Source: a virus (lineage: Duplodnaviria; Caudoviricetes). From it: a DNA stretch of 64,000 nt. This document shows positions 1,698 to 58,712 of the stretch, in pieces; within the stretch, counting starts at the first letter, position 1; every line of letters begins with the position of its first letter. The position numbers were made by a program, and so were the translations under genes. The DNA lies in IMG/VR virus record IMGVR_UViG_3300028653_000015, positions 15,116-79,115 of that record. The stretch is one strand, 5' to 3'. The notes under the pieces are model-generated. The model was not told the DNA's origin and searched no databases. It was given only the letters and a program-made list of their open reading frames with translations.

Positions 1698-2942
1698 CTA
1701 TTTAAGCATCACTTTCTTGGATAGAATGGACTGCAATGTTCCCGCCTGTATGGGTGGAGAGTACGGCACATGTGTGTGGGTAGCAAGCCACTCCAACAAC
1801 TTTAACCCAAGAGTGCCCGGCTCGGAAGCGTCAGGACCACCTATTTTTGTGAGGGGAGCATCGATTACCTTGATCTTAGCCCAAGTCTCGGTACTTGCAT
1901 CCGACCCAGTGATGTTATGTTCACCTGTGATGGTCTCAGTAACCTTACCCTGCACAGTTACTGAACGGTCTCCGGTTACCTGAATGGTTTGGTCTCCTTC
2001 AACAGTCAGGGAATCGTTACCCTTCACCTCCACCGTACGATTGCCAGCCTGCATGGAGTAGGAGTGGCCATCCTTAGATATCCTCAGTACGTAAGTTGGG
2101 TCTCCCGACACCTGGCCACTTGCTGGATCTATGTTACTGGGTGCAATCACAACCTCTATGAATGTTTTGTCATCACTAGGTCCGCCAGGAGGCTTAGGTT
2201 CTGAATTCAAAGAACCTACGCTAACCTTGATGGAGGCATTCCTGTCTTGTGCAAACTCCCTGGCCAGTAGGGTGAACTCAGTGGGTGCATTGCCCCCAGG
2301 ATCTTTCTCGACAGGATGAACTAGCCAAGACAAAGAACCGGCCGCTGTGTTGAGCTCGTAGTTCTCACAGAAGTCACGAATGTAATTGGCAATAGGGACA
2401 TAGGCACGCTGGCATACGTTCGTAGATCCTATATGAAGAACTCCACCCCTCTTCAAGATCAAAAAGTTCTCATCCCTACCCTGTATCCATATGTCGCCTG
2501 GATTCATTACAGGACGACCAGCACGATAGCTGGCGTCTGTAGTCTTGGGTGTGGTAGTACCACCTGAGTTGGTGGTCTGAGCAGAAGGCATGTCATCAGG
2601 ACTCTCTACATCCGGGTCCTGCGACTCCTGTTGCACATTTCCAGAGGCAGCCCCTACTATTTCTGGAGCTGTGATGAAGCCCATGACAAAAGGAGACTCC
2701 TCATCAGAGGGCCAGCACAACACGCAAATTGCCCCCACCTCCGGGCAGAAGTTGTACCCCTCCCCATTGTTGTAGTGCAGGTAGGGCGACATCACCTGTA
2801 CTCCAGCCATCTGTTTTCCGCTGTGCTGTGCAGTCCAATCCACCGTCATGTTCTGGACGTTTACGCTGGCTATTACACCGGTCTCGAACCTTGCTGTTCT
2901 GTTACCAGTTCTAGAAGCGGAGTTCTTAAAGGAAGCAGCCAT
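1698..2942 (-). CDS. Baseplate central spike, gp5/gpV/VgrG-like
   Basis: N-terminal OB-fold-like region (PEVGAICVLCW...FVMGF), 8-residue beta-helix repeats (GNRTVEVK GNDSLTVE GDQTIQVT GDRSVTVQ) and a C-terminal THTH metal-binding tip. Confidence 0.8.
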   Translation of the reverse strand: MAASFKNSASRTGNRTARFETGVIASVNVQNMTVDWTAQHSGKQMAGVQVMSPYLHYNNGEGYNFCPEVGAICVLCWPSDEESPFVMGFITAPEIVGAASGNVQQESQDPDVESPDDMPSAQTTNSGGTTTPKTTDASYRAGRPVMNPGDIWIQGRDENFLILKRGGVLHIGSTNVCQRAYVPIANYIRDFCENYELNTAAGSLSWLVHPVEKDPGGNAPTEFTLLAREFAQDRNASIKVSVGSLNSEPKPPGGPSDDKTFIEVVIAPSNIDPASGQVSGDPTYVLRISKDGHSYSMQAGNRTVEVKGNDSLTVEGDQTIQVTGDRSVTVQGKVTETITGEHNITGSDASTETWAKIKVIDAPLTKIGGPDASEPGTLGLKLLEWLATHTHVPYSPPIQAGTLQSILSKKVMLK

Positions 2943-2945
2943 AGA

Positions 2946-5900
2946 TCAGTACCACTCCGGATGTTCTTTAGGTGGCTTGCCTAGCTCGGCGGCGTAAACG
3001 ACCGCAGGAATTGGATGTAGGCCGTGTATATGGCTTCTCCATCCCTGTTGTGCTGCGCTGATCACAGTATCTGCCAAACCCTCGTGGTTGAGCTTGGCCA
3101 TCCAATCTTCCTGCATGTCTAGTGGTAGTACATTCACACCCTTGAGTATGGGCTCATGAACTATAGGCCGTTCTCCCTTAGCCATACTTCTATTCAATGA
3201 GGACACGAATGTAGTGGGCGCAAAGTCACCTCGAATGAAGTGTGTGGAAGAGCCTGCATCCTTTATCTTGGTGAGGTTAGTGAGCGCCTTGATCACTACC
3301 TCATGATTACGTCTACGAATTCCTTGACCTTTGTACATGTCATCCAGATTATCTGCCAACATGACCTGTACTGGTTCAATTCCAGTCAGAGGCAGCATCT
3401 CATGCGGGTTCACCCTACCATCTGAGATGGGCAAGCCCTTCTTGACCTCTGTACCAACTACCAAAGGCTTTTTGTCATAGACTGGTACTCCTCTAGACAG
3501 CGGGATGTAGTGCCGCTCCCCCTCTATGAGTACGTTGTGACCTCCAGCCGTATCCTTTTCTATCTTGGTTACTTTACCAGATACTGTGCTCAGTGTTGCT
3601 GAACCTGGCAAATTCTTCGGGAACAGCAACAGGTCTTGCACCTGTTCAAACTGATCAACAAGTGCCGACTTCGATGAGGCAGTACCACCAGTATGGAATG
3701 CTTTCATGGCTAGCTGTGTTGCACGTTCACCTATAGCCTGACCGGCAAGAATGCCTACGTTCAGTCCCCTCTCCGGTAGAGTTCCATTCTCCGTCAGGCC
3801 ATAGCACATCTGACACAGACCAGGTCCATGCAAACAACGCAGCGGAGATCTAACTACCACCTTACCCACATTGTTGTTCCTGAGAGCACTTCGCAACTCT
3901 GGGGTGATTAGTGTGCCTGACTTTACTATCCTGTTGCCAAGTCTGACATCTGCAGCTGTGAATCTATCTAGAATATCTTTCTCATCTACGGATAGAGCGA
4001 TCCCTTTGTTAGTACCACAGTCATGATCTAGAATGAGGTTATTCATCGTAGAGTTGATAACCTGCTTAGTGATATGACCAGGCTCTCTAACTGCCTGAAC
4101 CTTCTGAATGACACCCTTGCGACCACCACTGGTAGCTGTCCAGTAACCGGCAATGTCTAAGCCCTCAGCATAAGACTTACGTACAGGGTTGGGTATGATC
4201 TCCCCTTTATGATTGGCCATGAGCATAGGTGCAGCTCTAGTCTGTCTTACGGTGTCCGTGCCACCCTTCATACCCGTGTTGTGCAACAACATGAGATTGT
4301 TGCCCTCTTCTGGTACGGCCCTCAAGTGGGCATTTAACTCTTCTGTGGCCTTCGCATAGATCTCAATGGCTTTGGCGTCTCTAGACGGCCCTGACAACTT
4401 CTCTACTCGGGCATCCGCCTTGGCTAGTATTTGATCTCTAATTTCCCGTATAGGAGCTACGTCTTTGAGACCAACTGAAAAGGCAGTCTGAGTGGCCCAC
4501 ATGTTGCCTAGATCTTTGAGCTTGTTGATGGACTGTCCGTACTCGTTCTTGTGCTCCTTCGCGATGCGTGTCATCAGCTCTTCTTGAGCTGATGCATTTA
4601 GAGGGTCCGTCTTCCCAAGATACTCTCCCCTCATAACCTCTGGTAATGCACCAGCGACCATGAACCTGCCAACTGTAGAGTGTATACCTCCAACCTTTAT
4701 TTGGTCTGTGAGCTTTACCTCTCCCTTTCTGACCGCAGCCTCCACATCCTGAATCGTAGAGAATTCATGGCTGGTGACAGCTCCTACACGTGTGAGTCCA
4801 TACAAACCCAGCCTACTCTCTCCGGATGGGGAGTACATCAACTTACCAGTAGCGGGACTGAACAGGTTATTGGAGGGGAACATCTTGTGTGCTTCAGCCA
4901 CGGCCTCTGAGCCTACAGGTACGAAGGCACCCATAGCGTCTCCATCGAAGTCCGCATTGAAACCACTGGTGACTAGTGGGTGGATTTGAACAGCCTTTCC
5001 ACCGACAATACGGGGCTTGAATGCTTGGATACCATACTTGTGAAGCACGGGGTCTCGCTTCAGGAGTATTGGCCTACTGAGGATGACCCTATCTAAAGCT
5101 CGGTCTACTATCTCCCCACCCTCTTGCATTTTCTGCTGTGCCTGCAGAGGAGAGATGCCCATCAAATTTCGTAGTTCTCGAATCACGAAAGGCTTGTACA
5201 GTTCTAGAGCTGCAGACTTTGGTATTCCAACCTCATCTAGGCTGAGTGAGGGCTCTGGGACAATCGTTCCACGCATAGTCATATCCTGTTTGCGTGTGAC
5301 CAATTGCTCCTGGAAGAATCCCTCCTTTGGAGGGCCCACCTTGGCACCAGTACTGGGATCTACACGCTTGCCGGCAATGTAGTCCAAGATGCCTCTACGA
5401 ATACCACGTGGGTAGCTGCCTATGCCCGCCAGCGCACGCAAACCATCATACACTTCTTGTCTCAGCTCCACCTTAGACTGATCATCGTCCGGTATGAGCG
5501 GGGACATTTTTGCGTATCTGGATGCAGTCAGATGCAGATTCTTGTACAGACCATTCAAGTCATCTTCACTTATAGTACCGTTTGGAAGGATGGGCAAAGG
5601 ACGCATGGATGGGGGAAGTACTGGCACACTCTGCATCATGTATGCATCACGGGGGCTGACACCGATCTTATCCAGCACCTTCAAAAACTTGACCCGTTTG
5701 TTTACGTCGTCTAGGTAGGACCCCTTGAGTGTTGGCTTCTGCAACTTATCCAAGGCAGCAACCAGGTCCTTCTTCACATTTATCTTTCCTAGTAGTGCAG
5801 CAAAAGCCTTACCACCCACTAGACCGCCCTTAATCTTCAGCGGGTCACCATACTTACCTGTAATGGGATCATAGGCTAGTGTACCTGCGATCAGTCCATC

Positions 5901-8900
5901 ATACTGATTAGTCTTGAGTCCAGTCAGCTTTACTATGGCTCCCTCAAATACTGGATTCGGGAATGCTTCTGGCAATACGAAGTGACTCCACTTATCCCCC
6001 TCCATACCACCTGTAATCTTCTGATCGAATAGACCACCTGGCTCAGGCCGCATGGTTTTAGCAACAGTCATCTTAGATGGATCTTTGAGCTCACCGTTGC
6101 TCATCTCGTGGACTTGCTTATCTGTCATAGGAGAAAGCGTCAGACTGTTTCCAGTCTTCTCTACATTCACATTCAGACCTTTGATCAGACTGATGAACTT
6201 GTTGTACGCAAATGTAGGCTTTGGGGTAGGGAGCAGTTCTCCTGCTTGTAAAGCAGCCCAAAATTGATCTCCTTGGCCTGCATCACTCTTCAATGTATTC
6301 ATCTCGCGAAGGTTTGCTGTAGCTCCGTGAGCAAGCATAGAGTACAGACCCAACACTCCTAGAGACTGAGCGCCATGTGGACCACCGCCTTTGGGTATCT
6401 TGTTCCTATCGTAGGCGTACCCATAACCCAGGGCTCGAGCACTGAGTTTCTTTTCTACCTGGTGGTGCAATTTGAGGACATGCATAGGCCCTACTAGTGC
6501 ATCTCCCATAGGTCTTCCGTTACTAGGATCGTAGACAGTTTCCTTATCCGTCAAGCCATGCTTAGCCAAATCCTGTGTAACCTGGGCATGTAAGTCTGCG
6601 CCTGGTTTGAAGTTCTTGGTAAAGTATGTCTTGCCTGTCTTTTCCGCAATCTTACCTGCAGCAACCTCCAACACCTGCCCTAGGTTGGTTCTACCAGTAA
6701 CACCCAATGGGTTTAAGATCACATCTATGGGCCTACCATCTTTGGTATGTGGCGCCTCATGGTCAGGTATGATCTTAGTAATGATGCCCTTGTTACCGTG
6801 GCGGCCTGTGATCTTGTCTCCAATCTCTAGAGTCTCTTCTGTCTTCACGTGAACGGCAACATTATGACCAGTCTTAACGACCTCTTTCACAACCCCTGGG
6901 TAGTCGTTGTCCCATGTAACACTGGCATCCTTAAATGGCCGTACAATCGACTTGTGCAGTTTGGATAGCTGCACATCCTCCCGCTTCTCTGACTCATTTG
7001 AAGCGCGTAGAGCAGCTATGAGAGTGTCACCAGGCATAACCACCGTGCCAGGCTTGATAACCCCCTCGTCATCAAGCTTCTCAGCTTGGGCTCTATTCAT
7101 ACCAGTGGGTATGTACGCCTGGAACTTACGCTTATCTAGGACGTGAGCCACATCCCTCTCGATTGAGTGCCTGTGTAAATGCTCTGACGTGAGCTTCTTA
7201 GCGGCACTCTCCGTAACTACAATACCATCTTCGTAGTTGTACCCCTTGTATGGCATGAACCCAACACGAAGATTGGTACCCAAAGCCAACACACCGTTCT
7301 TGGTGTAGTTGGTGTCGGCCACCGTCTGCCCAGCCGTTACCTTATCTCCCACCTTTACTATGGGTGTGGAGTGTAGAAAGGCTTTGTCCTCATTCAACGG
7401 AAAGTGATCATAAATCTGAACTTCGTGCCTCTTCCCATCTGCGCCTTTAATAACTACAGCATCTGATTTGATCTGAGCAACAGTGCCACTATCACGAGTA
7501 TGGTGACTAGCAAAGCCTCCAACAAAGTGATCGAAGCTATGTACACCTGCCAAACTCTGTACAAGTGGGGCCTCTCTGTGCAGTAGAGAGACTGATTGCT
7601 CCATTTGCCGACCGGCCATTGTACTTCTGTTCGGGTGGTCAGCTGGCATGAAAGGGATGAGGTTCGATGCAAACGAGAACATTTGCATCGGGTCCTTCAT
7701 TACATAGTCCGCACTCTTTATGGAGCCGTCATAGATCTCATTCTCAAGACCACTGATCTTTATGGAGGGTCCTATGGGTACTGGTTTGCCTTCTACCCAC
7801 TTGACTTGGTCTGGAAGGACTACATGAGACCTGTAGGCAACTGTTGGGTTGACGTCCTCAGTCTTACCAGTATGTAGATTGTACATACGGATGGTGACAT
7901 CATGGCCGTTCTTGGTAACACCTATGGGCAGTCGTAGAGTGATGCCAGTCTCCTTGCCCTCTGGTGTGTGTATGGGATCCAGGTAGCCCAAATGGGACGG
8001 GTCTATCAGCTTCGCTTCATCAGAGACTGTGTGCTCGCTCTTGATACCACCATCTCCTGTGATGGTGGTCTTGAATTGAGCAGAGATCATTTCAAGAGGA
8101 TTGGTCTGGCTTGGTACTGAAGACAAAGAGTTCTTGGAGAACAGCTGCCGTATATGTCTATTGAAGATGTCCGGAGCTATGATGTCTCTGACCTTGTCCT
8201 TCTTGTCTACCGTATTTCCGATCTTACGTAAGATGTCTCTAGAGCCTCGAGTTATTCTCTCAGCTGCAAAGTCCTCCATCGAGTGAAGGTCCTTGAACAT
8301 GATGGCGTCTCTAGGATCTGGCTTGGCCTCTCCACGAGAAATCTTGAGCAACTTGACGGAAGCATCTAGTAGCGTAGCACCAGTCACGTTGGAGTGTGGC
8401 TTACCCAACGTGAGCATGTTGACGTCTGGATTCATCTTGGTGTTATCCATGACTTGCCAGAAGTGAGCACGCATATCCTCTGAAGTCATGATGGACGCGG
8501 GCTTGAGGCCCGTATCAGACTTGTAGAACTTAGCCAACGCCTTGGGCATGTCTGCGTGATTGGCAGCCGCAATATCCTTACCCCACCTCTTCTCTACCTC
8601 CTCTTCCGGCATTCCCATAGCATGGAGTAAAGGCTTGAGAGGTATGTTGGAGTTACCATACCCCATAGAGAACTCACGAGTAGCTGGGTCAAAGTGGATC
8701 TTGAAACCACCTCCTGGTGCATTGAAGTGCGATTCTAATGCACCGTCAGCCTTGATCATATTGTATACGCCAGGCTTCAAACGCCACTGGTTATCTACTT
8801 GGTACTCCTGACCATCAACTATGCTGCTGTATCGGTTAGTGATCTTAGGCAAGCTCATTAGCTTGATCTTCTGCCTATCTATCACCTTACCCGTAGCATT

Positions 8901-9125
8901 GTCCTTCAAAGAGACCGTAGCCTCCACCGGTACCGCCCACGACTTACCCTCAAGTTTGGCCTCCTTCTGAGACCTGAAGTCACCGCTATCCAGGTTGTCC
9001 CTGACAGCTACGTCGTGAAGCTCTAGCGTGTTCTTCTTCCCTACTATCGGGAAGAGACCGCTGACTGCATTTTGTACTCGGTCTTTGAGGAGATCAAACC
9101 CCTCTGCCGGGACAATACGTGCCAC
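2946..9125 (-). CDS. DNA-directed RNA polymerase, fused beta-beta' single chain
   Basis: Beta motifs: HTPEG, GYNYEDGI, GDKITGRHGNKG, LNPLGVTGRTNLGQ, KLHHQVEKK. Beta' motifs: PVLPPSMRP, LKRDPVLH, NADFDGD, RSPLRC..CQMCYG, GERATQLAMKAFHTGG. GTG start with AGGAG. Confidence 0.95.
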   Translation of the reverse strand: MARIVPAEGFDLLKDRVQNAVSGLFPIVGKKNTLELHDVAVRDNLDSGDFRSQKEAKLEGKSWAVPVEATVSLKDNATGKVIDRQKIKLMSLPKITNRYSSIVDGQEYQVDNQWRLKPGVYNMIKADGALESHFNAPGGGFKIHFDPATREFSMGYGNSNIPLKPLLHAMGMPEEEVEKRWGKDIAAANHADMPKALAKFYKSDTGLKPASIMTSEDMRAHFWQVMDNTKMNPDVNMLTLGKPHSNVTGATLLDASVKLLKISRGEAKPDPRDAIMFKDLHSMEDFAAERITRGSRDILRKIGNTVDKKDKVRDIIAPDIFNRHIRQLFSKNSLSSVPSQTNPLEMISAQFKTTITGDGGIKSEHTVSDEAKLIDPSHLGYLDPIHTPEGKETGITLRLPIGVTKNGHDVTIRMYNLHTGKTEDVNPTVAYRSHVVLPDQVKWVEGKPVPIGPSIKISGLENEIYDGSIKSADYVMKDPMQMFSFASNLIPFMPADHPNRSTMAGRQMEQSVSLLHREAPLVQSLAGVHSFDHFVGGFASHHTRDSGTVAQIKSDAVVIKGADGKRHEVQIYDHFPLNEDKAFLHSTPIVKVGDKVTAGQTVADTNYTKNGVLALGTNLRVGFMPYKGYNYEDGIVVTESAAKKLTSEHLHRHSIERDVAHVLDKRKFQAYIPTGMNRAQAEKLDDEGVIKPGTVVMPGDTLIAALRASNESEKREDVQLSKLHKSIVRPFKDASVTWDNDYPGVVKEVVKTGHNVAVHVKTEETLEIGDKITGRHGNKGIITKIIPDHEAPHTKDGRPIDVILNPLGVTGRTNLGQVLEVAAGKIAEKTGKTYFTKNFKPGADLHAQVTQDLAKHGLTDKETVYDPSNGRPMGDALVGPMHVLKLHHQVEKKLSARALGYGYAYDRNKIPKGGGPHGAQSLGVLGLYSMLAHGATANLREMNTLKSDAGQGDQFWAALQAGELLPTPKPTFAYNKFISLIKGLNVNVEKTGNSLTLSPMTDKQVHEMSNGELKDPSKMTVAKTMRPEPGGLFDQKITGGMEGDKWSHFVLPEAFPNPVFEGAIVKLTGLKTNQYDGLIAGTLAYDPITGKYGDPLKIKGGLVGGKAFAALLGKINVKKDLVAALDKLQKPTLKGSYLDDVNKRVKFLKVLDKIGVSPRDAYMMQSVPVLPPSMRPLPILPNGTISEDDLNGLYKNLHLTASRYAKMSPLIPDDDQSKVELRQEVYDGLRALAGIGSYPRGIRRGILDYIAGKRVDPSTGAKVGPPKEGFFQEQLVTRKQDMTMRGTIVPEPSLSLDEVGIPKSAALELYKPFVIRELRNLMGISPLQAQQKMQEGGEIVDRALDRVILSRPILLKRDPVLHKYGIQAFKPRIVGGKAVQIHPLVTSGFNADFDGDAMGAFVPVGSEAVAEAHKMFPSNNLFSPATGKLMYSPSGESRLGLYGLTRVGAVTSHEFSTIQDVEAAVRKGEVKLTDQIKVGGIHSTVGRFMVAGALPEVMRGEYLGKTDPLNASAQEELMTRIAKEHKNEYGQSINKLKDLGNMWATQTAFSVGLKDVAPIREIRDQILAKADARVEKLSGPSRDAKAIEIYAKATEELNAHLRAVPEEGNNLMLLHNTGMKGGTDTVRQTRAAPMLMANHKGEIIPNPVRKSYAEGLDIAGYWTATSGGRKGVIQKVQAVREPGHITKQVINSTMNNLILDHDCGTNKGIALSVDEKDILDRFTAADVRLGNRIVKSGTLITPELRSALRNNNVGKVVVRSPLRCLHGPGLCQMCYGLTENGTLPERGLNVGILAGQAIGERATQLAMKAFHTGGTASSKSALVDQFEQVQDLLLFPKNLPGSATLSTVSGKVTKIEKDTAGGHNVLIEGERHYIPLSRGVPVYDKKPLVVGTEVKKGLPISDGRVNPHEMLPLTGIEPVQVMLADNLDDMYKGQGIRRRNHEVVIKALTNLTKIKDAGSSTHFIRGDFAPTTFVSSLNRSMAKGERPIVHEPILKGVNVLPLDMQEDWMAKLNHEGLADTVISAAQQGWRSHIHGLHPIPAVVYAAELGKPPKEHPEWY

Positions 9126-9190
9126 GAATCTCTCCTAAATGTGTGTTGTTACCCCACCAAACTACCAGAGATACCCGACTGGTGGGTATG

Positions 9191-9217
9191 AAATTGTAAG
9201 TCGGTAAGCGTTATAAG
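9191..9217 (+). promoter_or_regulatory. Putative phage promoter AAA-N18-TATAAG
   Basis: One of five copies upstream of plus-strand units. Followed by the hairpin CAGAAGTAA-7nt-TTACTTCTG (9225-9249). Confidence 0.55.
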
Positions 9218-9489
9218 GATAGTACAGAAGTAAGATAACTTTACTTCTGGCTGTGTCTAAGGTTGACACAGAGGCAACACCTAAGTACAGGGGTTATGTT
9301 TAGATGCCTGAGTCCGACCACCAAGAAACCAGTGGACCTATGGATGATCTCAAGGACAGCCTTTTCGATGAGATCGAAGGTGGAAAAGAGGAGAACTACT
9401 CCGATGCAGGTCAAGACGAGAAATGATTTGGCACTTTGTCTTCAGCCTTTTGGCGGCATATATGACAGTACTAATGATCCCCAGGAAAC

Positions 9490-10071: not shown

Positions 10072-10500
10072 TTGCCAAGGTACACTGGAGTCATAGATCC
10101 CACGGTACCAGAAGTCACATGGGAGAATTTCAGAGAGATGTGTTTTATGGTTGTTGAAAACCCACTGAATTTCTACCTAGAACTACATAAGGGCGAATTC
10201 GGAATGCGGCCAGTATACGAACCCAGAGGACACAAAGAAGGACAACCAACAGAAACCTGGTGGTTCCCAAAGTTCATCGCAGAAGGATTCGTAGAGAAGT
10301 ACAAGGCAAACATTCCATCAGTTGATCCGAATTGGCCAGACGAAATGGCGGCTGCAGTATACAAGGACTGCAAGCCGTATGAGGAACACCTGGCACGACA
10401 GAAGACTGCAAGAACCTCGCAACACCAGAAGCGGTGGAGATACATAGTCTCCACAAAGCTGTCTGTGGAACAACAGAATAAGAAGGAAGATAGTGGCTAA
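10072..10500 (+). CDS. Hypothetical protein
   Basis: Track ORF 10021-10500. The TTG at 10072 has an AGGAGG RBS. Confidence 0.65.
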   Translation: MPRYTGVIDPTVPEVTWENFREMCFMVVENPLNFYLELHKGEFGMRPVYEPRGHKEGQPTETWWFPKFIAEGFVEKYKANIPSVDPNWPDEMAAAVYKDCKPYEEHLARQKTARTSQHQKRWRYIVSTKLSVEQQNKKEDSG

Positions 10501-12539
10501 ACCATCGCTGCTTCAGGTCCTCGCTGTGGAGGTCTCTGCATAGGCAGGGCTCTCGCAGACGCGGCTGAGGCAGCGGTGGGGCCATTTGCTCCGCTCATCA
10601 TTAGCCCAACAACCGTATCATGCAACTCTGGGCTGCGTTCTTGTAGACGTCTGAGCGTTACTGGCTTCTCTGCAGGAGTGAGCCTCGATATCTTGTCCGC
10701 CAGTTGTCTAGCCATGTACAGCAAGTCTACATTCATCCCACCCGCGATATCTGTGTTGGTGGCTGTAGCTGGATGTTGTTGAATGCTGCTCAGACTGAGT
10801 GGAGATGTGATCTCTTTTGGAGGTGAAATCAAGGATGGGTCTCTTGGTGTGGGTGCCATGTCTGGAGACTTCTGTGGTGCAGGCTGACCCGTTTGTGCAG
10901 CCGCTTGATCTTGCATCATTCCACTCTGAATCTCTGACTGGAATGTCATCTGTTCCTTGGCCGCTTCTGTCTGTATCGCAGCCTGCTCCACCATGGCCTT
11001 GGCTTGTGCTTTGTTCTGCCACTTGGCTGTGACAAGCATGGCCTCTCCCTCCATCTCCGCCTGTAGCAGTCGCTGCTTCTTCATCGCAGCTACCCTACGA
11101 GAAGCCTCCACTTCCATGATCTTGTCTTCTTTAGCCGAGTCGTAGTCAGCATCTGCCATCAAGGACTCATCAGACATCTTGCCAGCTTGGTTAAGCTGGA
11201 AGAGATATGCCTTCCTCTGTAGATCGTCCGCCATCTTGAACGGCTTGAACCTTGCCCCCACCTTGGGCCAGCTCAAGTAGGATGCTGTCCTGTCAATCAC
11301 CCACCGCAATAGGGATAACTGGTCAGACAAGTAGCCCAAGAACATGTTCTCGAGCATGCGCAAAGACACGTTAGATCCTGAGTAGCTAAGCCCACCAAAG
11401 ATCAATTCGTTGGGTACTCCCATACCAGCAACAATATGCTCAGACCATACCCGAATCTCTTGACTGAGAAGTAGGGCCCTGCCATCGCCGCCTATCGTCT
11501 CTTGACCAATAGGAAGTGGTAGGATGGGTATGTAGTTGTTGTCTGCACGCCACCGACGTAGCTCGCCCGCAATCTGATCATGCCAGTCCTGCAAGTTGAC
11601 TGTGGTGTAGGGGTCACTGGTGGCAGAACCCGACTGTGGGAACAGCATCCTCAGGGGAACGATATGCTCAAGAGCTATGGATTCCTGGGCCTTCCTGAGC
11701 ACCTGCAGATAGAAGGTATCCTTCAGTACTGGCAAAATCATAGGAGTACCCCAGCCTCTATCTTTGCCGGCAAGGGTAGGCCGCTTGAAGTGGTAGATAT
11801 TGTCCCTGCTGAACACGACAGCCTTCCTCAAACGAAGGGCGTCGATGAACAGCTGGGGCACACTCTCTACCGCCGATTTTTTGCCTATTATAATGTCGTT
11901 CTTCAGCTGCACCGGGATCGAATAGTAGTACTCGTACTCCCCGCTGATGTCGTTGTATCGGATGTCAATGTCTTCCGGATTCCATCGTAGTAGCCTGATA
12001 CCCTTGGGTGCCTTGATGTAATGGTCCCGGACCTTGGCTATACCAGAATGATCGCACTGCTCACACTGCCAGTGGAACTCGAAGTTCATGAACCTGTATA
12101 TGGCATCAGATGCCTGCTTCTCGAATCCGCAGCGTGTGCAACGAAGAATCTTCACGAATGGATAAAAGATGCTGACAAGAGCATTCCCGTAGGTGTAATA
12201 GTCCAGACCTATTTCGATCTGAAAAGGACGGTACCTTAGTTGCTCATTGAGAAAGCTGTTCCAGCTCTCCTTCAAATCTTGCTTTTCGGTGTCTAGGATG
12301 ATGTCTGTAATGGGGTAGTCTGCCATCTTGGAGACTACGGCATTGATCAGTGGATTCACCAGGAAGTAGTACCGACACCACCGGAACATCTGCTTGACCG
12401 TAGCTGGCAAGTAGGTCTGTCCGATATCGAAGAACGGGCTAGGGTATTGCAGACCGTAGTCTGAGGAGCTACCGGTACGTCCTCTAGTCCTAGAGAAGCG
12501 GAGAGCAGAGGAATCTGCACCACCTAAACCTGCACTCAT
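10497..12539 (-). CDS. Portal protein with Zn-ribbon insertion
   Basis: Portal-like segments NPLINAVVSKMADYP, DYYTYGNAL, IYHFKR..GWGTP, IVAGMGVPNELIFG..SYS, plus a Q/P-rich tail. Insert CTRC...CEQC. Confidence 0.75.
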   Translation of the reverse strand: MSAGLGGADSSALRFSRTRGRTGSSSDYGLQYPSPFFDIGQTYLPATVKQMFRWCRYYFLVNPLINAVVSKMADYPITDIILDTEKQDLKESWNSFLNEQLRYRPFQIEIGLDYYTYGNALVSIFYPFVKILRCTRCGFEKQASDAIYRFMNFEFHWQCEQCDHSGIAKVRDHYIKAPKGIRLLRWNPEDIDIRYNDISGEYEYYYSIPVQLKNDIIIGKKSAVESVPQLFIDALRLRKAVVFSRDNIYHFKRPTLAGKDRGWGTPMILPVLKDTFYLQVLRKAQESIALEHIVPLRMLFPQSGSATSDPYTTVNLQDWHDQIAGELRRWRADNNYIPILPLPIGQETIGGDGRALLLSQEIRVWSEHIVAGMGVPNELIFGGLSYSGSNVSLRMLENMFLGYLSDQLSLLRWVIDRTASYLSWPKVGARFKPFKMADDLQRKAYLFQLNQAGKMSDESLMADADYDSAKEDKIMEVEASRRVAAMKKQRLLQAEMEGEAMLVTAKWQNKAQAKAMVEQAAIQTEAAKEQMTFQSEIQSGMMQDQAAAQTGQPAPQKSPDMAPTPRDPSLISPPKEITSPLSLSSIQQHPATATNTDIAGGMNVDLLYMARQLADKISRLTPAEKPVTLRRLQERSPELHDTVVGLMMSGANGPTAASAASARALPMQRPPQRGPEAAMV

Positions 12540-16851: not shown

Positions 16852-16879
16852 GCAAAAAGCTCAAAACCACGGGTATAAG
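16852..16879 (+). promoter_or_regulatory. Putative phage promoter GCAAA-N17-TATAAG
   Basis: Motif copy at the start of the replication block. Confidence 0.6.
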
Positions 16880-36494: not shown

Positions 36495-36522
36495 CAAAAT
36501 ACATACCCTACGAGGGTATAAG
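36495..36522 (+). promoter_or_regulatory. Putative phage promoter CAAAA-N17-TATAAG
   Basis: Motif copy directly after a terminator and upstream of 36568. Confidence 0.6.
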
Positions 36523-41710: not shown

Positions 41711-44700
41711 CTAAAGATACCACCCTCTTGAGTAAATGCCGTCAGTCAAACCAGCCAGCCCTCCAGGTAGACCCATATCGAATGATAGCAGGCCCACCAA
41801 CGGACCATAAGGCGGCGGAGGTGGGGTAGGTGCTGGACCACTCAAAGGGACTATATCCATGCCTCCTCCATCATCAAATGCCCAGATGGAGTCAAACTTG
41901 GGAGTTCCAGATAGAGGCTCAGCAACATAGACTGACAACTCATCTGTGGCTGGAAATAGGAGGGGTCTGTCGTGCGCAAAATATACTGGATCATATAGGT
42001 GGGCATTAGCTAGTGCGCCTATGGCCCAATCTATGCCGCCCACTATAAGTACATTGCCATCTAGAAGAACAGATGCAGCATTGCCAGAATTGGCTACTGT
42101 GGTTTGATCTACTATGATGAACCGACCAGAACTCGGTTCATAGAGCTCCACAACTGGGGTGCTGCCTCCCACCACATCACCACCAACGACAAGCACTGAA
42201 CCGTCCTGCAGCAGAGATGCTGTGAAATCCCCTCTTGCCACATTCAAATCCCCAGTGGCGCTGAACGTGCCTGTGCTGGGATCATACAGTTCAGATGTAC
42301 CAACAGGTCCGGACATACTCCAGCCACCAGTAATGAGCACCTTGCCGCTCTGTAGCAGTGTAGCTGTATGATAGCATCTACTAGTCAGCATTGAGCCAGT
42401 AGCTACAAACTCATTTGTAGCTGGGTCATACAGCTCAGCGGTGTCTGTGATCGTCGATCCGTCAAAACCACCAGTGAGCAATACCATGCCGTTTGGTAGT
42501 AGTACGGAGGCAAACAAATCCCTATAGAATATCGTAGAGCCTACGCTAGAAAAGGTGCGGGTATTGGGGTCGTACAGATCTGCACTTCCTGAACCTGCAA
42601 CCAATACCATGCCATCATCTAGTACGGTAGCAGTGGGCGACCCTCGATAATCAGTCATGTCACCCACGGATTGAAACAGCCCAGTCACAGTGCTGTACAA
42701 CTCCGCAGAGTTGACTGGCGATGTACTGCCGTCCGTACCACCAGCTATCAACACATACCCCGCACCAACCATAACAGCTGCTGCTTGGTACCTCTGTACT
42801 ATGGGCTCTGCGGCACTATGAAACGTCTTAGTTCTTGGATCATACAGTTCTGCTGCCCTAGCCTCTATGGATTGGGCCCCACCAACAACGAGCACCTTTC
42901 CACTGGGTAGCAGGGTAGACGTTGGCCATATGCGAAGCCCAGAGGAGCTCAGCTCCTTAACAGAGGTATTCACTGCATCAAAGTGTTGCTGGCATTCCCC
43001 ATCTGTATACAGTGAATCATGTGGAGGATCAAACGCCTCTCCAGAAACGTCATCATCGTATCTGTACGCACCGATGTTCTTGGTGTCTGGAGTAGATACG
43101 ATCAACTTACGTACCGTAGTCGTTAACTCATCCACCACATCTATGGTGTCTGGCGGAGTTGCAACATTCTTCAGAATGATAAATGTTGGATAGGTGTAGT
43201 GGGGCTTGAACTTCAGCATGAAGTCAATCGCAAACGTGAGGTTTGCGATATCGAAAGCATCCACATTGGCTCTGATGGCAAAGCGAAAGAACTTCTCTAC
43301 CTCTGAGAAGACAGAACCATACACAGACCCCCACTCAGCACCATTCAACCAGTCCAATACCTCTACACCGGTACTGAGTGGTGCAAATTGATCTATCTTA
43401 TCCCCCACAGCTATGGTCTTATGTGTCTCCTGATTTATGGCTAAGCCTAGGTGACTGGTGGTGGGGTAGTAGTACCCACGAACAAGCGCTGGGTTACTTG
43501 CATCCTGTATAAAGATCCTACCTTGCTTGGCACTGAAGTTTTGGTTGATGTCCTTTACGATTCCTGCCTCTTCCGAAAATGGAAGACCTAGAAGTATATG
43601 AATGCCTACACGTATGTTCTCAATAGAGGGGCCACCAAAGTAGGCGTACCAAAGTCCTCGAACAGCAGACAGATAGTCCAAAGACTCTGAGATACCTGTA
43701 GACTCAGATGCTGTGAATGATACCAGCGTACCAAAGTTGGCCTCTATAGCTGGGCTGTTATCTAGATATGTGATCTCCGCCCACAGTCTGTCTGGAGGAG
43801 GGTCTCCTATGGAGTATGTGCCAGGAGCAAACTGTATGGTGTTCTGCCCAGCAATCTTAGTGATGGTGTAATCTTTGTTGCCTACGAGGCGAGACTGTGG
43901 GTCTTTGATCACCTCCTGCAGACAGGGTATATCTACTACCAGTGCATCTACCGGCACGTTCTTGAGTCTGCTCACACCTACAAATGTAGTAGTGAAGTCC
44001 TCAGGCTTACCGTTGTAGTACATCAACAGCGGAGCAGGGTTAAAGCCCAACCTCTCATGAGCTACACCCACTACCGGGCAATGGACGATGGTAGGCACTC
44101 CAGTTGCAATGGGGGTGACTTCAAATCTAGCCAGGTCCCCTACTGAGATCAGTTGAGCAGTGAAGTCATTGACCTCCGATACCACAACTGATGGTATCAA
44201 CCAATCCCTAAATATCACAACACGACCAATTGCTGGATCTACAGGCACGTATTTGGCAGGTATGGGATCTAACAGCACAACATCGAGGTATACTGGTGAC
44301 ACTCTTTGATAAACTGGGCGCAGACCTATGTCTTTGATCCTAAGTGCTATCCTATCTTGTGGCACATTGGGTGGGTAAATGATTGTTCCCGTGAACACAT
44401 CTTCGGGGCCTACTCCGTAGTACGATAGATCATAGGTAGGTAATCCAGGATCGTTATTTACTCCTTGATCAAAAGTGGAATGTATCTCGATATTAACTTG
44501 GGGCCCTGGAGGAAAGCTGCGGAATTCAGGAGTATATGCAAACGAGTAGATCTCGTAGGGAGTGTATGTATCAACTGCTCGTAGATCATTCTGCATATAC
44601 GCAGTAGAAAAGAAGCCAAAACTGGAATTTGCCGTTCCATTTGGCGTGAGTCTCAGCAATCTATTAGGGTAATCAAAAGCGAGTATCCAATCGTTACGAA

Positions 44701-46483
44701 CATTAGCTAGTGGTGTGTCTGTCGTAGAGAAACCCAGCTGTTCATTTACTTGCCGGGCCAACTCCTCTGGAGACAGTGGATTACCTGGTGTTCCAATGAA
44801 TGTAACTGTCTCAATCTTTCCATTGTCAAATACGAACTCCAATGTTAAGCCAGCCACATCCTTCGGGCCACCCCAGGGGCATAGGATACCCCCACGTAGG
44901 ATTCGAATGGTGGATGTAGTAGGATCGTCTGTAAGGAATGTATTGTACTCCAGCCATCTACGTTGAAAGACCCTCTGAATGTCTTTCAAGCTCTTGTTGT
45001 AGTCTATCTGCCAAACTGTCATCAGGATGTTGGCTGCAGCCTGAGCGAACCCTGACCACACTGTCTCTATCTTATCTTTGTCCTCCAGTAGGTTCCAAAA
45101 GTCGGATAGGTGCCTCCAGATGAAGGAGACATCTGGAATCTCTCCCAGTGTCAAGGATGTCTGGGACACGTTCAGAAGTGCGAACTCCGGTATGCTATCC
45201 AGTTCTCCATCGTTCACCACCAGCTGTGGTTCATACAAACCAGCGGCATCTGGAGTAGCATCTGGAGTGGCGTGTGTCTGGTCGCTGAAGAATGTGGCAG
45301 AGTGACATATGACCCAAGCCTGGTTGCTCAAGTTATCCGGCAGTAGCTCCGCTGTTATAGCTATGGTGTTGTCATCAATCCAACCGCCCCCAACAATGTT
45401 ACGCACCCACTTGCTGGTGCGCAGATCTAATGTCCACATTGGTGTCTGACCAACGACACCAACGGCTACTGTGTACTGTTGGCCACCTACTAGTAGTGTG
45501 TCCCCAGGCTGAAGTACCGGAGCTTTGTCAACACTGAAAGACCCCTCTGAGTCGTAGAAAAAGTAGGTGAATCCATCAGCATTGAAGTCAGGGCTGGTAC
45601 TGCCAGCTACGCTAGATATCTTGAACTGTGATCCATCTGGTGCATCAATCAAAGACCAGAAGTAGGTAAGAGGCGAGCCCTCAGGATCGTAGCTGCCAGA
45701 GCCATCAAACCGAACAGTAGCTCCTACAGATACACCCTGATCTGTACCTGGTACTGCTACAGGCCGCTGATTGGGCACCATCATCGCGTGCCCGTTAAAT
45801 CTGACAGTTTGCACTGTGATCTGAGCTGGTATAGACCCAGTACCCAGTGTGGCTATGACTACCCCATTACTAGAGTCTGGCGGTGACTGAATCGCACCGG
45901 TGGTGAATCGTAGTTGATGGCCCTTTATAGGTATCAGATCAGTCTTGGTAACATAGATGTTTGTTACATCCAGTTCTGCGCTCACTGCTATACGAATGGT
46001 GTAGTAGTCACTACCTTCCGGGATCAAAGACTGGCTTCCTGGAATAGGAAAGGCGGCACCTGTTGGGGCGGATACGATAGCAAGACCTGCTCTGGAGATA
46101 ACAAGACCACAACCTGGGCCCTGCATATCGTACGCACCTATGAAGAGCCTATAGATATCCAGGTTGCTCAAGTCTGGTGGCAGTCTATCTGGTCGGAATG
46201 TAACCTCGAGTGTCCAGGACTCACTAGTCTCAAGATCTATGCTGATGGCTGTTTCAGCATTTCCATCATCCATGATCCTGAGCCCTAGGGCTGTAGGATC
46301 ATACACAATCCAAGGAGCGCCCTTAGTAGCGCTTACCTCTATATAGTCCGGCAAAATGGCTATCGTACTAGCGCTGTCTACATCAGCGCTAGGGAACTCT
46401 GGGGATGTGGGTATGTGCTCACTTGGAGAACCAACAGAACCCCAATGTGCACTACCCCACGGACTATTTCCCCAGCCAGCCAT
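41711..46483 (-). CDS. Large baseplate/tail protein with PKD-like domain and Kelch beta-propeller
   Basis: NQRPVA..FDGSGSYDPEGSPLTYFWSL (PKD-like) and about six Kelch repeats (TATLLQSGKVLITGG...ELYDP). Confidence 0.8.
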   Translation of the reverse strand: MAGWGNSPWGSAHWGSVGSPSEHIPTSPEFPSADVDSASTIAILPDYIEVSATKGAPWIVYDPTALGLRIMDDGNAETAISIDLETSESWTLEVTFRPDRLPPDLSNLDIYRLFIGAYDMQGPGCGLVISRAGLAIVSAPTGAAFPIPGSQSLIPEGSDYYTIRIAVSAELDVTNIYVTKTDLIPIKGHQLRFTTGAIQSPPDSSNGVVIATLGTGSIPAQITVQTVRFNGHAMMVPNQRPVAVPGTDQGVSVGATVRFDGSGSYDPEGSPLTYFWSLIDAPDGSQFKISSVAGSTSPDFNADGFTYFFYDSEGSFSVDKAPVLQPGDTLLVGGQQYTVAVGVVGQTPMWTLDLRTSKWVRNIVGGGWIDDNTIAITAELLPDNLSNQAWVICHSATFFSDQTHATPDATPDAAGLYEPQLVVNDGELDSIPEFALLNVSQTSLTLGEIPDVSFIWRHLSDFWNLLEDKDKIETVWSGFAQAAANILMTVWQIDYNKSLKDIQRVFQRRWLEYNTFLTDDPTTSTIRILRGGILCPWGGPKDVAGLTLEFVFDNGKIETVTFIGTPGNPLSPEELARQVNEQLGFSTTDTPLANVRNDWILAFDYPNRLLRLTPNGTANSSFGFFSTAYMQNDLRAVDTYTPYEIYSFAYTPEFRSFPPGPQVNIEIHSTFDQGVNNDPGLPTYDLSYYGVGPEDVFTGTIIYPPNVPQDRIALRIKDIGLRPVYQRVSPVYLDVVLLDPIPAKYVPVDPAIGRVVIFRDWLIPSVVVSEVNDFTAQLISVGDLARFEVTPIATGVPTIVHCPVVGVAHERLGFNPAPLLMYYNGKPEDFTTTFVGVSRLKNVPVDALVVDIPCLQEVIKDPQSRLVGNKDYTITKIAGQNTIQFAPGTYSIGDPPPDRLWAEITYLDNSPAIEANFGTLVSFTASESTGISESLDYLSAVRGLWYAYFGGPSIENIRVGIHILLGLPFSEEAGIVKDINQNFSAKQGRIFIQDASNPALVRGYYYPTTSHLGLAINQETHKTIAVGDKIDQFAPLSTGVEVLDWLNGAEWGSVYGSVFSEVEKFFRFAIRANVDAFDIANLTFAIDFMLKFKPHYTYPTFIILKNVATPPDTIDVVDELTTTVRKLIVSTPDTKNIGAYRYDDDVSGEAFDPPHDSLYTDGECQQHFDAVNTSVKELSSSGLRIWPTSTLLPSGKVLVVGGAQSIEARAAELYDPRTKTFHSAAEPIVQRYQAAAVMVGAGYVLIAGGTDGSTSPVNSAELYSTVTGLFQSVGDMTDYRGSPTATVLDDGMVLVAGSGSADLYDPNTRTFSSVGSTIFYRDLFASVLLPNGMVLLTGGFDGSTITDTAELYDPATNEFVATGSMLTSRCYHTATLLQSGKVLITGGWSMSGPVGTSELYDPSTGTFSATGDLNVARGDFTASLLQDGSVLVVGGDVVGGSTPVVELYEPSSGRFIIVDQTTVANSGNAASVLLDGNVLIVGGIDWAIGALANAHLYDPVYFAHDRPLLFPATDELSVYVAEPLSGTPKFDSIWAFDDGGGMDIVPLSGPAPTPPPPPYGPLVGLLSFDMGLPGGLAGLTDGIYSRGWYL

Positions 46484-46523
46484 TAGCTTGCTCCTGTTGT
46501 CGTGTGGTACTCACTTACGTAGG

Positions 46524-46553
46524 ATTGTACGAGTGTACAGCGCTCTAGGTCAA
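46524..46553 (-). promoter_or_regulatory. sigma70-like promoter TTGACC-N18-TACAAT
   Basis: Upstream of the 1590-aa gene. Shares CTCGTAC(A/T)AT with the 16806-16835 promoter. Confidence 0.55.
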
Positions 46554-46591
46554 CTGTTGCCGCAAAGTTACTATTGGCGTAGTGTATCACC

Positions 46592-46909
46592 ATGGACCTG
46601 AAACCCGCTGACCCCCGCGTCATTCTTAAACTGTTGGAAGGTAAGAGGGATGTCATAACTCCTCTAGCTGAAAAAAGAGATGCGTTCTACTTGGGCCAGA
46701 CATGTATCAGGTGTGGTGGCACAGCCCTGACCAAAGTGGCCAATGCTGCTACGCTTTTTCGAGCCAATGATCCTATGCCACGCTACCTGCTGCAGTGCCA
46801 GGACTGTACGTGTCTGTTTGATCCGCATACTGGTCTACTCTTGTCTATGGGTAACCTTGGAAAAGCCTTCTTACCTGCTGTTCCTCTTCTTGACGGCCCA
46901 GAGGACTAG
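46592..46909 (+). CDS. Zn-ribbon hypothetical protein
   Basis: CIRC...CQDC. A lone plus-strand gene, possibly leaderless after TTGCCG-N17-TAGTGT. Confidence 0.7.
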   Translation: MDLKPADPRVILKLLEGKRDVITPLAEKRDAFYLGQTCIRCGGTALTKVANAATLFRANDPMPRYLLQCQDCTCLFDPHTGLLLSMGNLGKAFLPAVPLLDGPED

Positions 46910-52358: not shown

Positions 52359-52386
52359 GCAAATCAGGTGCCCATACGGGTATAAG
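52359..52386 (+). promoter_or_regulatory. Putative phage promoter GCAAA-N17-TATAAG
   Basis: Motif copy followed by the hairpin AAGAGAA-GCAA-TTCTCTT. Confidence 0.6.
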
Positions 52387-53399: not shown

Positions 53400-53427
53400 G
53401 CAAAAGGGGGCAATAGGCTGGTATAAA
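53400..53427 (+). promoter_or_regulatory. Putative phage promoter GCAAA-N17-TATAAA
   Basis: Motif variant followed by the hairpin GCTAGG-GAGTA-CCTAGC. Confidence 0.55.
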
Positions 53428-54488: not shown

Positions 54489-54530
54489 TGATGCGTTGCA
54501 ATTAGACTGCGTCTAATTGCACTGTGTCAA
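54489..54530 (-). repeat. Second, inverted copy of the 42-bp TTGACA/palindrome element
   Basis: The reverse complement matches 17371-17412 at 40/42 positions. Confidence 0.85.
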
Positions 54531-57755: not shown

Positions 57756-58712
57756 TCAAGCTACGATTATGATGACTGGGGCAGAGAGCAGATTATTGGA
57801 GGGAATCTTGACGATGCTCTGATCTTTCCGCACAGCAGTCAACTGTGTAGTACCTGGGTTCACTCCTACCAGAAACAGATTATCCATAGTGACGCTGATT
57901 CCTGCCACACTCTTATCCAGGACATCATAGTACACATCTTCGCAAGCTGTACCCACCAATGTACGTCCATCATCTGCGGTAACCACGACGCTAGGATTGA
58001 CGGCTTGGTTGAGGGCTAGGGCTATTGGGTTTGGAGAGACATCCACATTGCTGACGATTGGGAACAGCAAGTTCACCAGATTGGCAGAGCCCTGATCTGG
58101 GATGACCATATTCCTTGGAAAGCCCAATGCATGTTCACTGTTGCCATCAGCAGCCTGCACACCTGCTACCCAAGCCATGTACTGACCATTTCTATACAGG
58201 TCTATGCAGCCATAACCATACTGGTCTGTTTTGAAGTAGATGCCCTCTCCCATCACTGCATTACCATCGACCACGGAGGGACCGAACTCATTGATGAATT
58301 TGATCTCAAGGCCGGGAAGAGGTTTGCCAGTGATATCCTTGAAGAAGCCACTGCACCTACACAGTCTCAAGTCTGGGGATACTGGCCGTACGAAAGTCTC
58401 TCCTTTGATATCGAAGCTATTGCCCCCTGGTACAGCTGATGGAGGACTGAAGACAGTGATGAGCAGTGGGGTCTTGCTGGCACTTCCTAGGGAGCCATCG
58501 AAGGCTGCACCAGTTTTAGACATGCGGATGGTATAGGGGATAGCTGGATTATTTCCTGCCAGGCCATCTATTTCAGCCACACCATTCACATCTGTATACT
58601 GCTGTGTTTGGAAGACAGCACCAGCAGCATCATACACACGTATCAAGACACCGACTATAGGGTTGTTATCTTGATCTGATACGTTGAAGACTACAGTTTC
58701 TGGATTAGACAT
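57756..58712 (-). CDS. Structural protein with Ig-like/transthyretin-like domains
   Basis: VSDQDNNPIVGVLIRVY..TDVNG and a C-terminal Ig-like segment (GVNPGTTQLTA). Confidence 0.7.
   Translation of the reverse strand: MSNPETVVFNVSDQDNNPIVGVLIRVYDAAGAVFQTQQYTDVNGVAEIDGLAGNNPAIPYTIRMSKTGAAFDGSLGSASKTPLLITVFSPPSAVPGGNSFDIKGETFVRPVSPDLRLCRCSGFFKDITGKPLPGLEIKFINEFGPSVVDGNAVMGEGIYFKTDQYGYGCIDLYRNGQYMAWVAGVQAADGNSEHALGFPRNMVIPDQGSANLVNLLFPIVSNVDVSPNPIALALNQAVNPSVVVTADDGRTLVGTACEDVYYDVLDKSVAGISVTMDNLFLVGVNPGTTQLTAVRKDQSIVKIPSNNLLSAPVIIIVA

Follow-up and report, generated by a model that had tools for sequence, protein, structure and literature searches.

A bacterial-type RNA polymerase encoded as one beta-beta' chain among the particle genes of a group of large uncultured phages

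The locus described here raises the question of how a phage could run an RNA polymerase (RNAP) of the bacterial type when the enzyme is encoded as a single chain, with which partners such an enzyme would start transcription, and whether it travels in the virus particle. The locus lies in a stretch of 64,000 nucleotides, called the window below, which corresponds to bases 15116-79115 of a 79,115-bp IMG/VR phage contig (IMGVR_UViG_3300028653_000015) that has no end repeats and is rated 43% complete by CheckV. The gene in question occupies positions 2946..9125 on the minus strand and consists of codons for 2059 amino acids (aa) followed by a TGA stop. As far as can be judged from its sequence, it encodes the whole catalytic core of a bacterial-type RNAP as one polypeptide. 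The best reading of the evidence, considered on balance probable, is that of an alpha-less core stripped of cysteine (Cys), which depends on a phage sigma factor and is probably delivered with the virion.

The initial annotation had described one 2059-aa open reading frame (ORF) with beta motifs followed by beta' motifs, and this description is confirmed by the frame itself, by the order of the Pfam domains and by the motifs, the gene being on the minus strand. The start codon is GTG with AGGAG 7 nt upstream, and the N-terminus of the protein agrees with the consensus of its homologues, MARLxPxEGF. Pfam matches run from Rpb2_3 and Rpb2_6 (PF00562, 4e-62; the single Rpb2_6 match in the whole contig) to the Rpb1 domains, namely Rpb1_1 (below the cut-off), Rpb1_2 (PF00623, 1e-25), Rpb1_3 (PF04983) and Rpb1_5 (PF04998, 5e-20), and a sequence search of the PDB returned bacterial beta' chains (E 1e-104). 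The beta barrel with its conserved lysine motif is represented by PF00562 and by GRHGNKG (6786..6806, minus strand; residues 774-780), which is identical in 60 of 77 homologues. The beta' barrel, the catalytic magnesium site NADFDGD, the bridge helix and the trigger-loop histidine were recognised by Pfam, by alignment with Escherichia coli and by motif counts. NADFDGD (4938..4958, minus strand; residues 1390-1396) is identical in 75/77 homologues, and the trigger-loop motif FHTGG with the catalytic histidine is found at 3684..3698 (minus strand; residues 1810-1814), so that both elements named earlier are intact. Instead of separate beta and beta' chains held on an alpha dimer there is one chain, and it is short: 2059 aa compared with a minimum of 2284 aa, measured from stop to stop, in 57 sampled bacterial loci of beta plus beta'. 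The difference of at least 225 residues agrees with the earlier remark that the protein is shorter than the two bacterial subunits together.

The architecture of the chain was derived from a profile of 77 intein-free homologues aligned to E. coli RpoB and RpoC. The beta module (6117..9125, minus strand; about residues 1-1003) corresponds to E. coli beta 51-1338 without lineage-specific insertions: stretches 51-227, 422-932 and 1048-1338 are aligned, and stretches 228-421 and 933-1047, which we take to hold the insertions SI1 and SI2, are left unaligned. The junction is narrow, with at most 15 profile positions between the last residue aligned to beta and the first aligned to beta'. The beta' module (2949..6116, minus strand; about residues 1004-2059) corresponds to E. 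coli beta' 30-1347, with stretches 30-63, 142-974 and 1131-1347 aligned, and is devoid of the zinc-binding domain, of residues 117-141 and of SI3; the E. coli trigger-loop insertion is missing. The lid, the clamp helices, NADFDGD, the bridge helix, the second zinc site, the trigger loop and the jaw region are kept in beta', and the flap region is also retained. The second zinc site (3804..4019, minus strand) comprises Cys 1703, 1764, 1771 and 1774, which align with the E. coli site.

The earlier proposal that the N-terminal zinc-binding domain of beta' has been deleted holds. E. coli beta' 64-141 is reduced to 21 profile positions by removal of the four-cysteine zinc ribbon and of residues 117-141, six residues, MEGDKW (5988..6005, minus strand; residues 1041-1046), stand in place of the domain, and the equivalent stretch of 45 residues has no Cys in any of the 77 homologues. 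An AlphaFold2 model covering residues 860-2059 (34 rows in the alignment) reached a mean predicted local distance difference test (pLDDT) of 75.1 and a predicted template modelling score of 0.59, and matched bacterial beta' chains in Foldseek (E 1e-54, template modelling score 0.63-0.68). Its confidence across the junction and the former zinc-ribbon site is pLDDT 80-94, and 90-94 at the site of the lost domain itself. The protein is thus read from these alignments as a minimal beta module joined to a minimal beta' module with all catalytic elements present. The equivalent of the rifampicin pocket lies at 8046..8111 (minus strand; residues 339-360), where the positions aligned with E. coli D516, H526 and S531, presumably the rifampicin resistance positions, are S, A and T; a pocket substituted in this way would make transcription insensitive to rifampicin.

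A search of 5.8 billion proteins gave 2215 hits scored at E up to 1e-10. The best 120 of the 2215 are all fused, share 45-91% identity with the window's protein and come from contigs of up to 199 kb; among these best 120 clusters 77 are 2025-2085 aa long, and 39 exceed 2150 aa through inserts. The 39 long homologues carry 54 large inserts, and many of the long proteins have intein or homing-endonuclease Pfam domains. Insertion is concentrated at catalytic motifs, in about six hot spots near residues 390, 775, 945, 1400 (NADFDGD), 1770 (zinc site) and 1815 (trigger loop) in the numbering of the window's RNAP (P0001), and the window's copy has none of these inserts. The contig is collinear with bases 116,500-199,200 of a relative, G001 (201,921 bp, rated 100% complete), and the portal, capsid, terminase, some structural proteins and the RNAP are shared with Salmonella phage Arash (180.8 kb) at about 20-37% identity. 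The same proteins are shared with Vibrio phage D69 (186.7 kb), as far as the two compared stretches of D69 allow. The lineage is a large group of uncultured phages of roughly 170-200 kb with Arash and D69 as cultured cousins.

The phylogeny proposed with the initial annotation was built from 47 rows and 1523 profile-anchored columns by a quick IQ-TREE search (LG+C20+F+G4 by posterior mean site frequencies), with the Shimodaira-Hasegawa-like approximate likelihood-ratio test (SH-aLRT) as the measure of support. The bacteria were hand-picked, 24 of 57 usable loci, two more through a relaxed length filter and E. coli making 27; Helicobacter and Wolbachia, in which beta-beta' fusions reportedly occur, lie outside this sample. 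A single clade (SH-aLRT 99) comprises the 16 rows of fused phage enzymes, with Arash and D69 as its sister group (99), and the phage clade of 18 rows so formed (99) is separated from all 27 bacteria by a branch of length 1.13 (SH-aLRT 100). YerA41 and Carin-5 form a separate long branch. Nesting in a cellular clade was not seen, and the distinct phage RNAP type which had been suggested is supported by the clade of the fused family with Arash and D69, apart from the 27 bacteria and from YerA41 and Carin-5, although the family is already present in databases. A cellular fusion is included: rpoB and rpoC form a single reading frame of 2284 aa in a genome contig of Candidatus Paceibacterota (L062:163-7014), a member of the candidate phyla radiation. 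This fused rpoBC groups with Saccharibacteria inside the bacteria and away from the phages, a position that speaks against descent of the phage gene from a cellular fused rpoBC gene. One ORF in each of Arash and D69 covers beta and then beta' as far as about residue 1472 (profile positions 8-1472). It follows that both branches of the phage clade have the beta-beta' fusion, and the cut inside beta' looks like a secondary event in the branch of Arash and D69. The chance that the gene is an artefact, a mis-assembled rpoB/rpoC join, or a recent capture from a bacterium is negligible, since at least 77 independent clusters share its length and junction, the phage clade stands apart from all 27 bacteria of the tree, and identity is only 27-32% for the best 80 of the bacterial beta' matches listed. 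A search of one-genome-per-species bacterial contigs, which detects close relatives only, found no close relative of the RNAP.

With regard to partners, the initial annotation had stated that no alpha or sigma gene is recognisable in the window, and this is correct for the entire 79-kb contig as well. For alpha, the contig, G001, Arash and D69 were all without a PF01000 or PF01193 match at E up to 1, and all 14 control genomes were positive; omega was not searched for. Alpha is described as a universal core subunit of bacterial RNAP (PMC7598289), and its absence from all three complete relatives makes the suggested independence of alpha plausible. Each complete relative has exactly one Rpb2_6 match, and the enzyme is by this count the only RNAP of this phage lineage; the T7-like RNAP family PF00940 matched none of the four records, a result of little weight since the controls gave no match either.

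Sigma was sought in the window and contig with Pfam Sigma70_r2 at E up to 1, by tblastn with the sigmas of three relatives, with the G001 sigma as query and with a three-sequence profile with filters off, and none was found. A 228-aa ORF at the place of the G001 sigma (63094-63780) was rejected as a candidate, being rich in glycine and valine, with no Pfam hit and no similarity to sigma. With a contig that is only about 43% complete, little can be concluded from the missing gene. The gp10-type gene of G001 is found about 2 kb past the last gene that G001 shares with the contig. The contig itself stops 220 bp after the unrelated ORF at the matching place, so the sigma gene may lie just off its end. 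A gp10-type protein of the sigma-70 family is encoded by all three complete relatives (G001, Arash, D69). That of G001 has 229 aa and aligns with Arash gp10 along its entire length at 30% identity (E 2e-32). The type matches Sigma70_r3 above the Pfam cut-off, with weaker matches to region 2 and to the C-terminal helix-turn-helix, and the family counts 60 clusters, typically of about 255 aa. Arash and D69 have a second sigma, of gp196 type, and G001 lacks it. A model of the complex of G001 RNAP residues 985-1420 with the G001 sigma scored 0.72 against 0.17 for the best of three controls, where the mark is reached by 58/80 solved complexes and by 2/110 mismatched pairs; contact agreement between runs was at least 31% and partner pLDDT at least 65. 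The modelled interface sets the beta' clamp helices (5454..5543, minus strand; P0001 residues 1195-1224), mapped from this model as the predicted docking site of sigma region 2, against sigma residues 41-55. The pair is the textbook one of sigma region 2, and the good score may reflect likeness to solved holoenzymes. The suggested independence of sigma is not upheld, in view of the gp10-type sigma in all three complete relatives, the kept clamp helices and the complex model that passed its controls.

Candidate targets of such a holoenzyme are present. The box GGTATAAG occurs exactly at window positions 16872-16879, 36515-36522 and 52379-52386, with one mismatch at 9210-9217 and 53420-53427, and a further site of this type lies upstream of the window (contig bases 8431-8568). 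Every one of these boxes lies between genes and on the plus strand, at a distance of 24-92 nt ahead of rightward non-virion genes, often with a GCAAA-rich box about 17-20 nt further upstream. The intergenic part, 4.8% of the contig, has four of the six GTATAAG copies. The hypothesis put forward is that the phage RNAP with its sigma reads the GGTATAAG boxes. The copy at 9210-9217, GTTATAAG, is on the plus strand and faces away from the RNAP gene, toward small rightward ORFs. It falls within the intergenic region upstream of the RNAP gene (9126..9262), from which the RNAP gene and the small rightward ORFs diverge; a perfect inverted repeat of 9 bp at 9225-9250 (CAGAAGTAA ... TTACTTCTG) and the AGGAG ribosome site are also located there. 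A scan with the sigma-70 consensus gave one weak site upstream of the RNAP gene (TAGACA-16-TATCTT, 9 of 12); the whole region has 5 such sites against a mean of 9.4 in shuffles, with no convincing RNAP promoter, and no shared motif for the leftward particle operons was derived from their few upstream regions.

The position of the gene points to the particle. It stands in a leftward block of particle genes, in which portal, RNAP and spike are followed at a distance by a terminase that contains an intein. The portal gene (10497..12539, minus strand, 680 aa) lies upstream of the RNAP gene, separated here by three small opposite-strand ORFs; its product has 32% identity to Arash portal gp204 and to the D69 homologue and a weak PHROG portal match. 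Downstream is the gene of a gp5-like central spike or baseplate hub protein (1698..2942, minus strand, 414 aa) with Gp5_C, Gp5 trimerisation and baseplate-hub matches. The end of the RNAP gene 3 nt before the spike gene, as annotated, is verified by the sequence TGA-TCT-ATG. The order portal-RNAP-spike is collinear with G001, and the portal is next to the RNAP in Arash and D69 too. The other evidence comes from purified Arash particles, in which tandem mass spectrometry detected the RNAP pieces and the sigma gp10 (PMC10585845). In the published data gp206, which comprises beta and the front of beta', has 3516 spectra, the highest of any protein, followed among the proteins of interest by gp216 (rear of beta', 1210), the helicase gp217 of a neighbouring gene (1148), the portal gp204 (877) and the sigma gp10 (467); the text of that paper does not mention gp196 (PMC10585845). 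Computed here from annotated lengths, the RNAP pieces give about 2.0-2.3 spectra per residue and the portal 1.5. The suggestion of a virion-packaged RNAP is accordingly supported in an indirect manner, by gene position and by the reported Arash particle proteome (PMC10585845).

Cysteine content is a further feature of the family. The RNAP has four cysteines, all at the second zinc site, and exactly four are found in 59/77 homologues and none in G001, compared with 13-36 (median 19) per bacterial beta/beta' pair in 57 pairs. Its Cys content is 0.19%, the rest of the contig's proteins having 1.3% and the replication proteins of the same contig 1.5-1.8%; no Cys is present in 53 of the 60 sigma relatives. 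Such depletion would fit a protein that is stored in the particle and expelled from it. The very large particle proteins of the window (1590, 1458 and 975 aa; 41711-51282 and 54527-57454, minus strand) are also poor in Cys (0.27-0.51%).

From these features the following mechanism can be proposed. No relative encodes an alpha subunit, and the covalent beta-beta' link would take over the assembly role of the alpha dimer. The RNAP would be synthesised alongside the virion proteins, be packaged and enter the cell with the DNA; it would initiate with a small Cys-free phage factor of the sigma-70 family (Arash gp10 type), whose gene would lie outside the 43%-complete fragment, and the promoters of GGTATAAG type ahead of rightward non-virion genes would be its likely targets. 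In its strongest form, which is put forward tentatively and is possible but doubtful, the proposal is a holoenzyme of two polypeptides: a 230-kDa chain needing neither alpha nor omega and a Cys-free sigma of about 250 aa, both packed in the capsid, delivered with the DNA and firing TATAAG early promoters without host polymerase, with the loss of the zinc ribbon and of free Cys as an adaptation to storage in the particle and exit from it.

Several points weigh against the reading of an alpha-less, sigma-dependent and probably virion-delivered core. The contig has no sigma gene, and a sigma for this phage would be taken from its relatives alone. The tree is a quick one, and its bacteria, drawn from the best 80 of the matches listed, are skewed to Actinomycetota and Bacillota. 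Confidence of the AlphaFold2 model is low around the active-site barrel (pLDDT 34-57 at model residues 491-570), a part of beta' that normally packs against beta. The RNAP gene has no TATAAG box on its own strand, and we infer the link between enzyme and promoters. The particle data concern the split enzyme of Arash, which is only about 34% identical and in two pieces. In the Arash preparation, finally, 116 of the roughly 270 proteins were listed, ribonucleotide reductases and a nicotinamide phosphoribosyltransferase among them (PMC10585845), and carry-over from the lysate is possible. It could accordingly be argued that the enzyme is an intracellular, non-virion polymerase, made together with particle genes and acting on middle or late genes, and that the Arash signal is carry-over of an abundant large protein; large proteins yield many spectra, and a phage with one RNAP per genome must use it late too unless the host RNAP is employed. 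This is judged unlikely, because in Arash the RNAP spectra per residue at least equal those of the portal, the linkage to the portal is conserved among relatives that are 31-46% identical, and RNAP and sigma share a Cys depletion which the replication proteins of the contig do not have. Far less credit, indeed hardly any, is given to the idea that the single chain is a precursor which a head protease or other processing would divide during maturation into a beta-like and a beta'-like part. Processing is common among packaged proteins of other large phages, and the enzyme of the Arash and D69 branch does consist of two chains, divided inside beta' close to residue 1475; however, the beta-beta' junction is short, modelled as ordered (pLDDT 80-94 at model residues 121-160) and still fused even in the split branch, and cleavage of the chain is conjecture.

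The dependence on partners can be disputed in two directions. The fused chain may still need the host alpha dimer, perhaps with omega, as engineered or natural cellular beta-beta' fusions do, and this is the alternative to be taken most seriously, though it is rather unlikely. With 27-32% identity to bacterial beta and beta', surfaces for contact with alpha could survive, and cellular fusions (that of the Paceibacterota genome, L062, and reportedly that of Helicobacter) coexist with alpha. Opposed to this are the three complete phage genomes with no alpha gene, the multisubunit RNAPs of jumbo phages, which are reported to act without alpha or omega (PMC7598289), and the consideration that an enzyme delivered by the particle would have to act before recruiting host alpha. 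The other direction is that initiation is independent of sigma, the core reading promoters itself or using a non-sigma factor as in phiKZ and AR9. The 79-kb contig without a sigma gene would agree with this, as would the deletion of the zinc-binding domain, which in bacterial holoenzymes contacts sigma and promoter DNA. It is nevertheless very improbable given the gp10-type sigma of all complete relatives with its 60 clusters, the kept clamp helices together with the complex model, the detection of sigma in Arash particles (PMC10585845), and two-part promoter-like boxes whose TATAAG element resembles a -10 box.

Among known enzymes the closest are those of Arash (gp206 and gp216 with sigma gp10; OQ632216, PMC10585845) and of the Vibrio phages D69, D148 and D181. 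Arash and D69 belong to the same clade and share the fusion of beta to the front of beta', the portal-adjacent gene, one RNAP per genome and the lack of an alpha match, but identity is only about 31-34%, and their enzyme is cut in two inside beta' near 1475, where the chain is unbroken here; they also differ by the second sigma of gp196 type. The two pieces in Arash are about 5 kb apart with nine genes between, and the text of the Arash paper labels them simply as beta and beta', without analysis (PMC10585845). In D69 the pieces are 640 bp apart with two tiny ORFs between (L001:12504-13141), and the place of this gap is taken by a homing endonuclease in D148 and D181; a search for an intron in the 640-bp gap with Rfam gave nothing credible (best E-value 0.085). 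The mReC set of Weinheimer and Aylward (2020, PMC7481178) comprises deep-branching beta and beta' from IMG/VR phage contigs, selected by COG0085/COG0086 matches of at least 800 aa and NADxDGD, and resembles the present family in origin, motif and branching apart from cellular RNAPs. Its main text, with which the comparison was made, describes no beta-beta' fusion ("fused" and "fusion" are used only for crAssphage) and has no discussion of sigma, virion packaging or loss of the zinc domain, and mReC capsids matched the T4-type family PF07068 (PMC7481178); the 202-aa capsid fragment here matched no Pfam family. The present family would, by its sequence features, pass the mReC filters and is probably within that set.

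The virion RNAP of phage N4 is T7-like, and the enzymes of crAss-like phages and of P23-45 are not known to use a sigma and are too divergent for detection by sequence. What N4 virion RNAP, crAss-like gp66 and the tape-measure-fused virion RNAP of P23-45 have in common with the present enzyme is the proposed role, that of a large single-chain polymerase in the particle for first transcription (such a first-round role of packaged phage polymerases is described in PMC10770324); the window's RNAP differs in aligning directly with bacterial beta and beta'. The RNAPs of phiKZ and AR9 are likewise phage two-barrel enzymes without alpha or omega, one set of which is packaged and injected, and phages of this type are reported to give rifampicin-resistant infection (PMC7598289, PMC4666361). 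These RNAPs consist of 4-5 very divergent polypeptides in two paralogous sets and have no sigma (PMC7598289), in contrast to one chain of bacterial-type sequence, one RNAP per complete relative and a sigma encoded by the relatives. Bacterial-type beta and beta' are also found in YerA41 and Cobetia phage Carin-5, in the latter with an adjoining sigma gene, but as separate genes, beta' first (split in YerA41) and then beta, in a replication neighbourhood and on a distinct long branch of the tree. The cellular fusion of the Paceibacterota contig has beta and beta' in one frame, joined at the same ends, and cellular fusions are longer than the phage form (2284 aa in that ORF).

Other genes of the contig may be described briefly. 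The large terminase, encoded upstream of the window (L010:9746-12826 in contig bases, minus strand), has 1026 aa and contains an intein with a LAGLIDADG endonuclease (Intein_splicing, LAGLIDADG_3, Hint). At 58705-60597 (minus strand), among particle genes, a 630-aa protein combines a LigD-type 3'-phosphoesterase, an ATP-dependent ligase with OB domain and a P-loop kinase-like domain, and looks like an enzyme for healing and sealing of nucleic-acid ends. A 484-aa protein at 61609-63063 (minus strand) with collagen triple-helix repeats and a PKD-like domain is probably a fibre or decoration protein.

In the literature searched, which included the texts of PMC7824862 and PMC7598289, with subscription journals and supplements outside its scope, no description of a fused, zinc-ribbon-less, sigma-partnered beta-beta' phage RNAP of bacterial type was encountered. 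The enzyme type is widespread and biochemically unstudied; metagenomes contain its lineage in abundance, and cousins of it are in culture. As stated in PMC7598289, neither alpha nor omega nor a sigma homologue accompanies the multisubunit RNAPs of phages, and jumbo phages that have sigmas have no RNAP of their own; the present lineage appears to combine its own multisubunit RNAP with its own sigma, two things kept apart in that account. With a branch outside the sampled bacteria and a fusion common to the phage clade, the tree is relevant to where phage RNAPs came from. If the holoenzyme indeed consists of two polypeptides, it would be the smallest known sigma-dependent transcription machine of the multisubunit type. 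One bacterial-type chain working without alpha would be a natural minimal system for the roles of alpha, omega and the beta' zinc ribbon, and the RNAP could serve as a compact orthogonal transcription tool.

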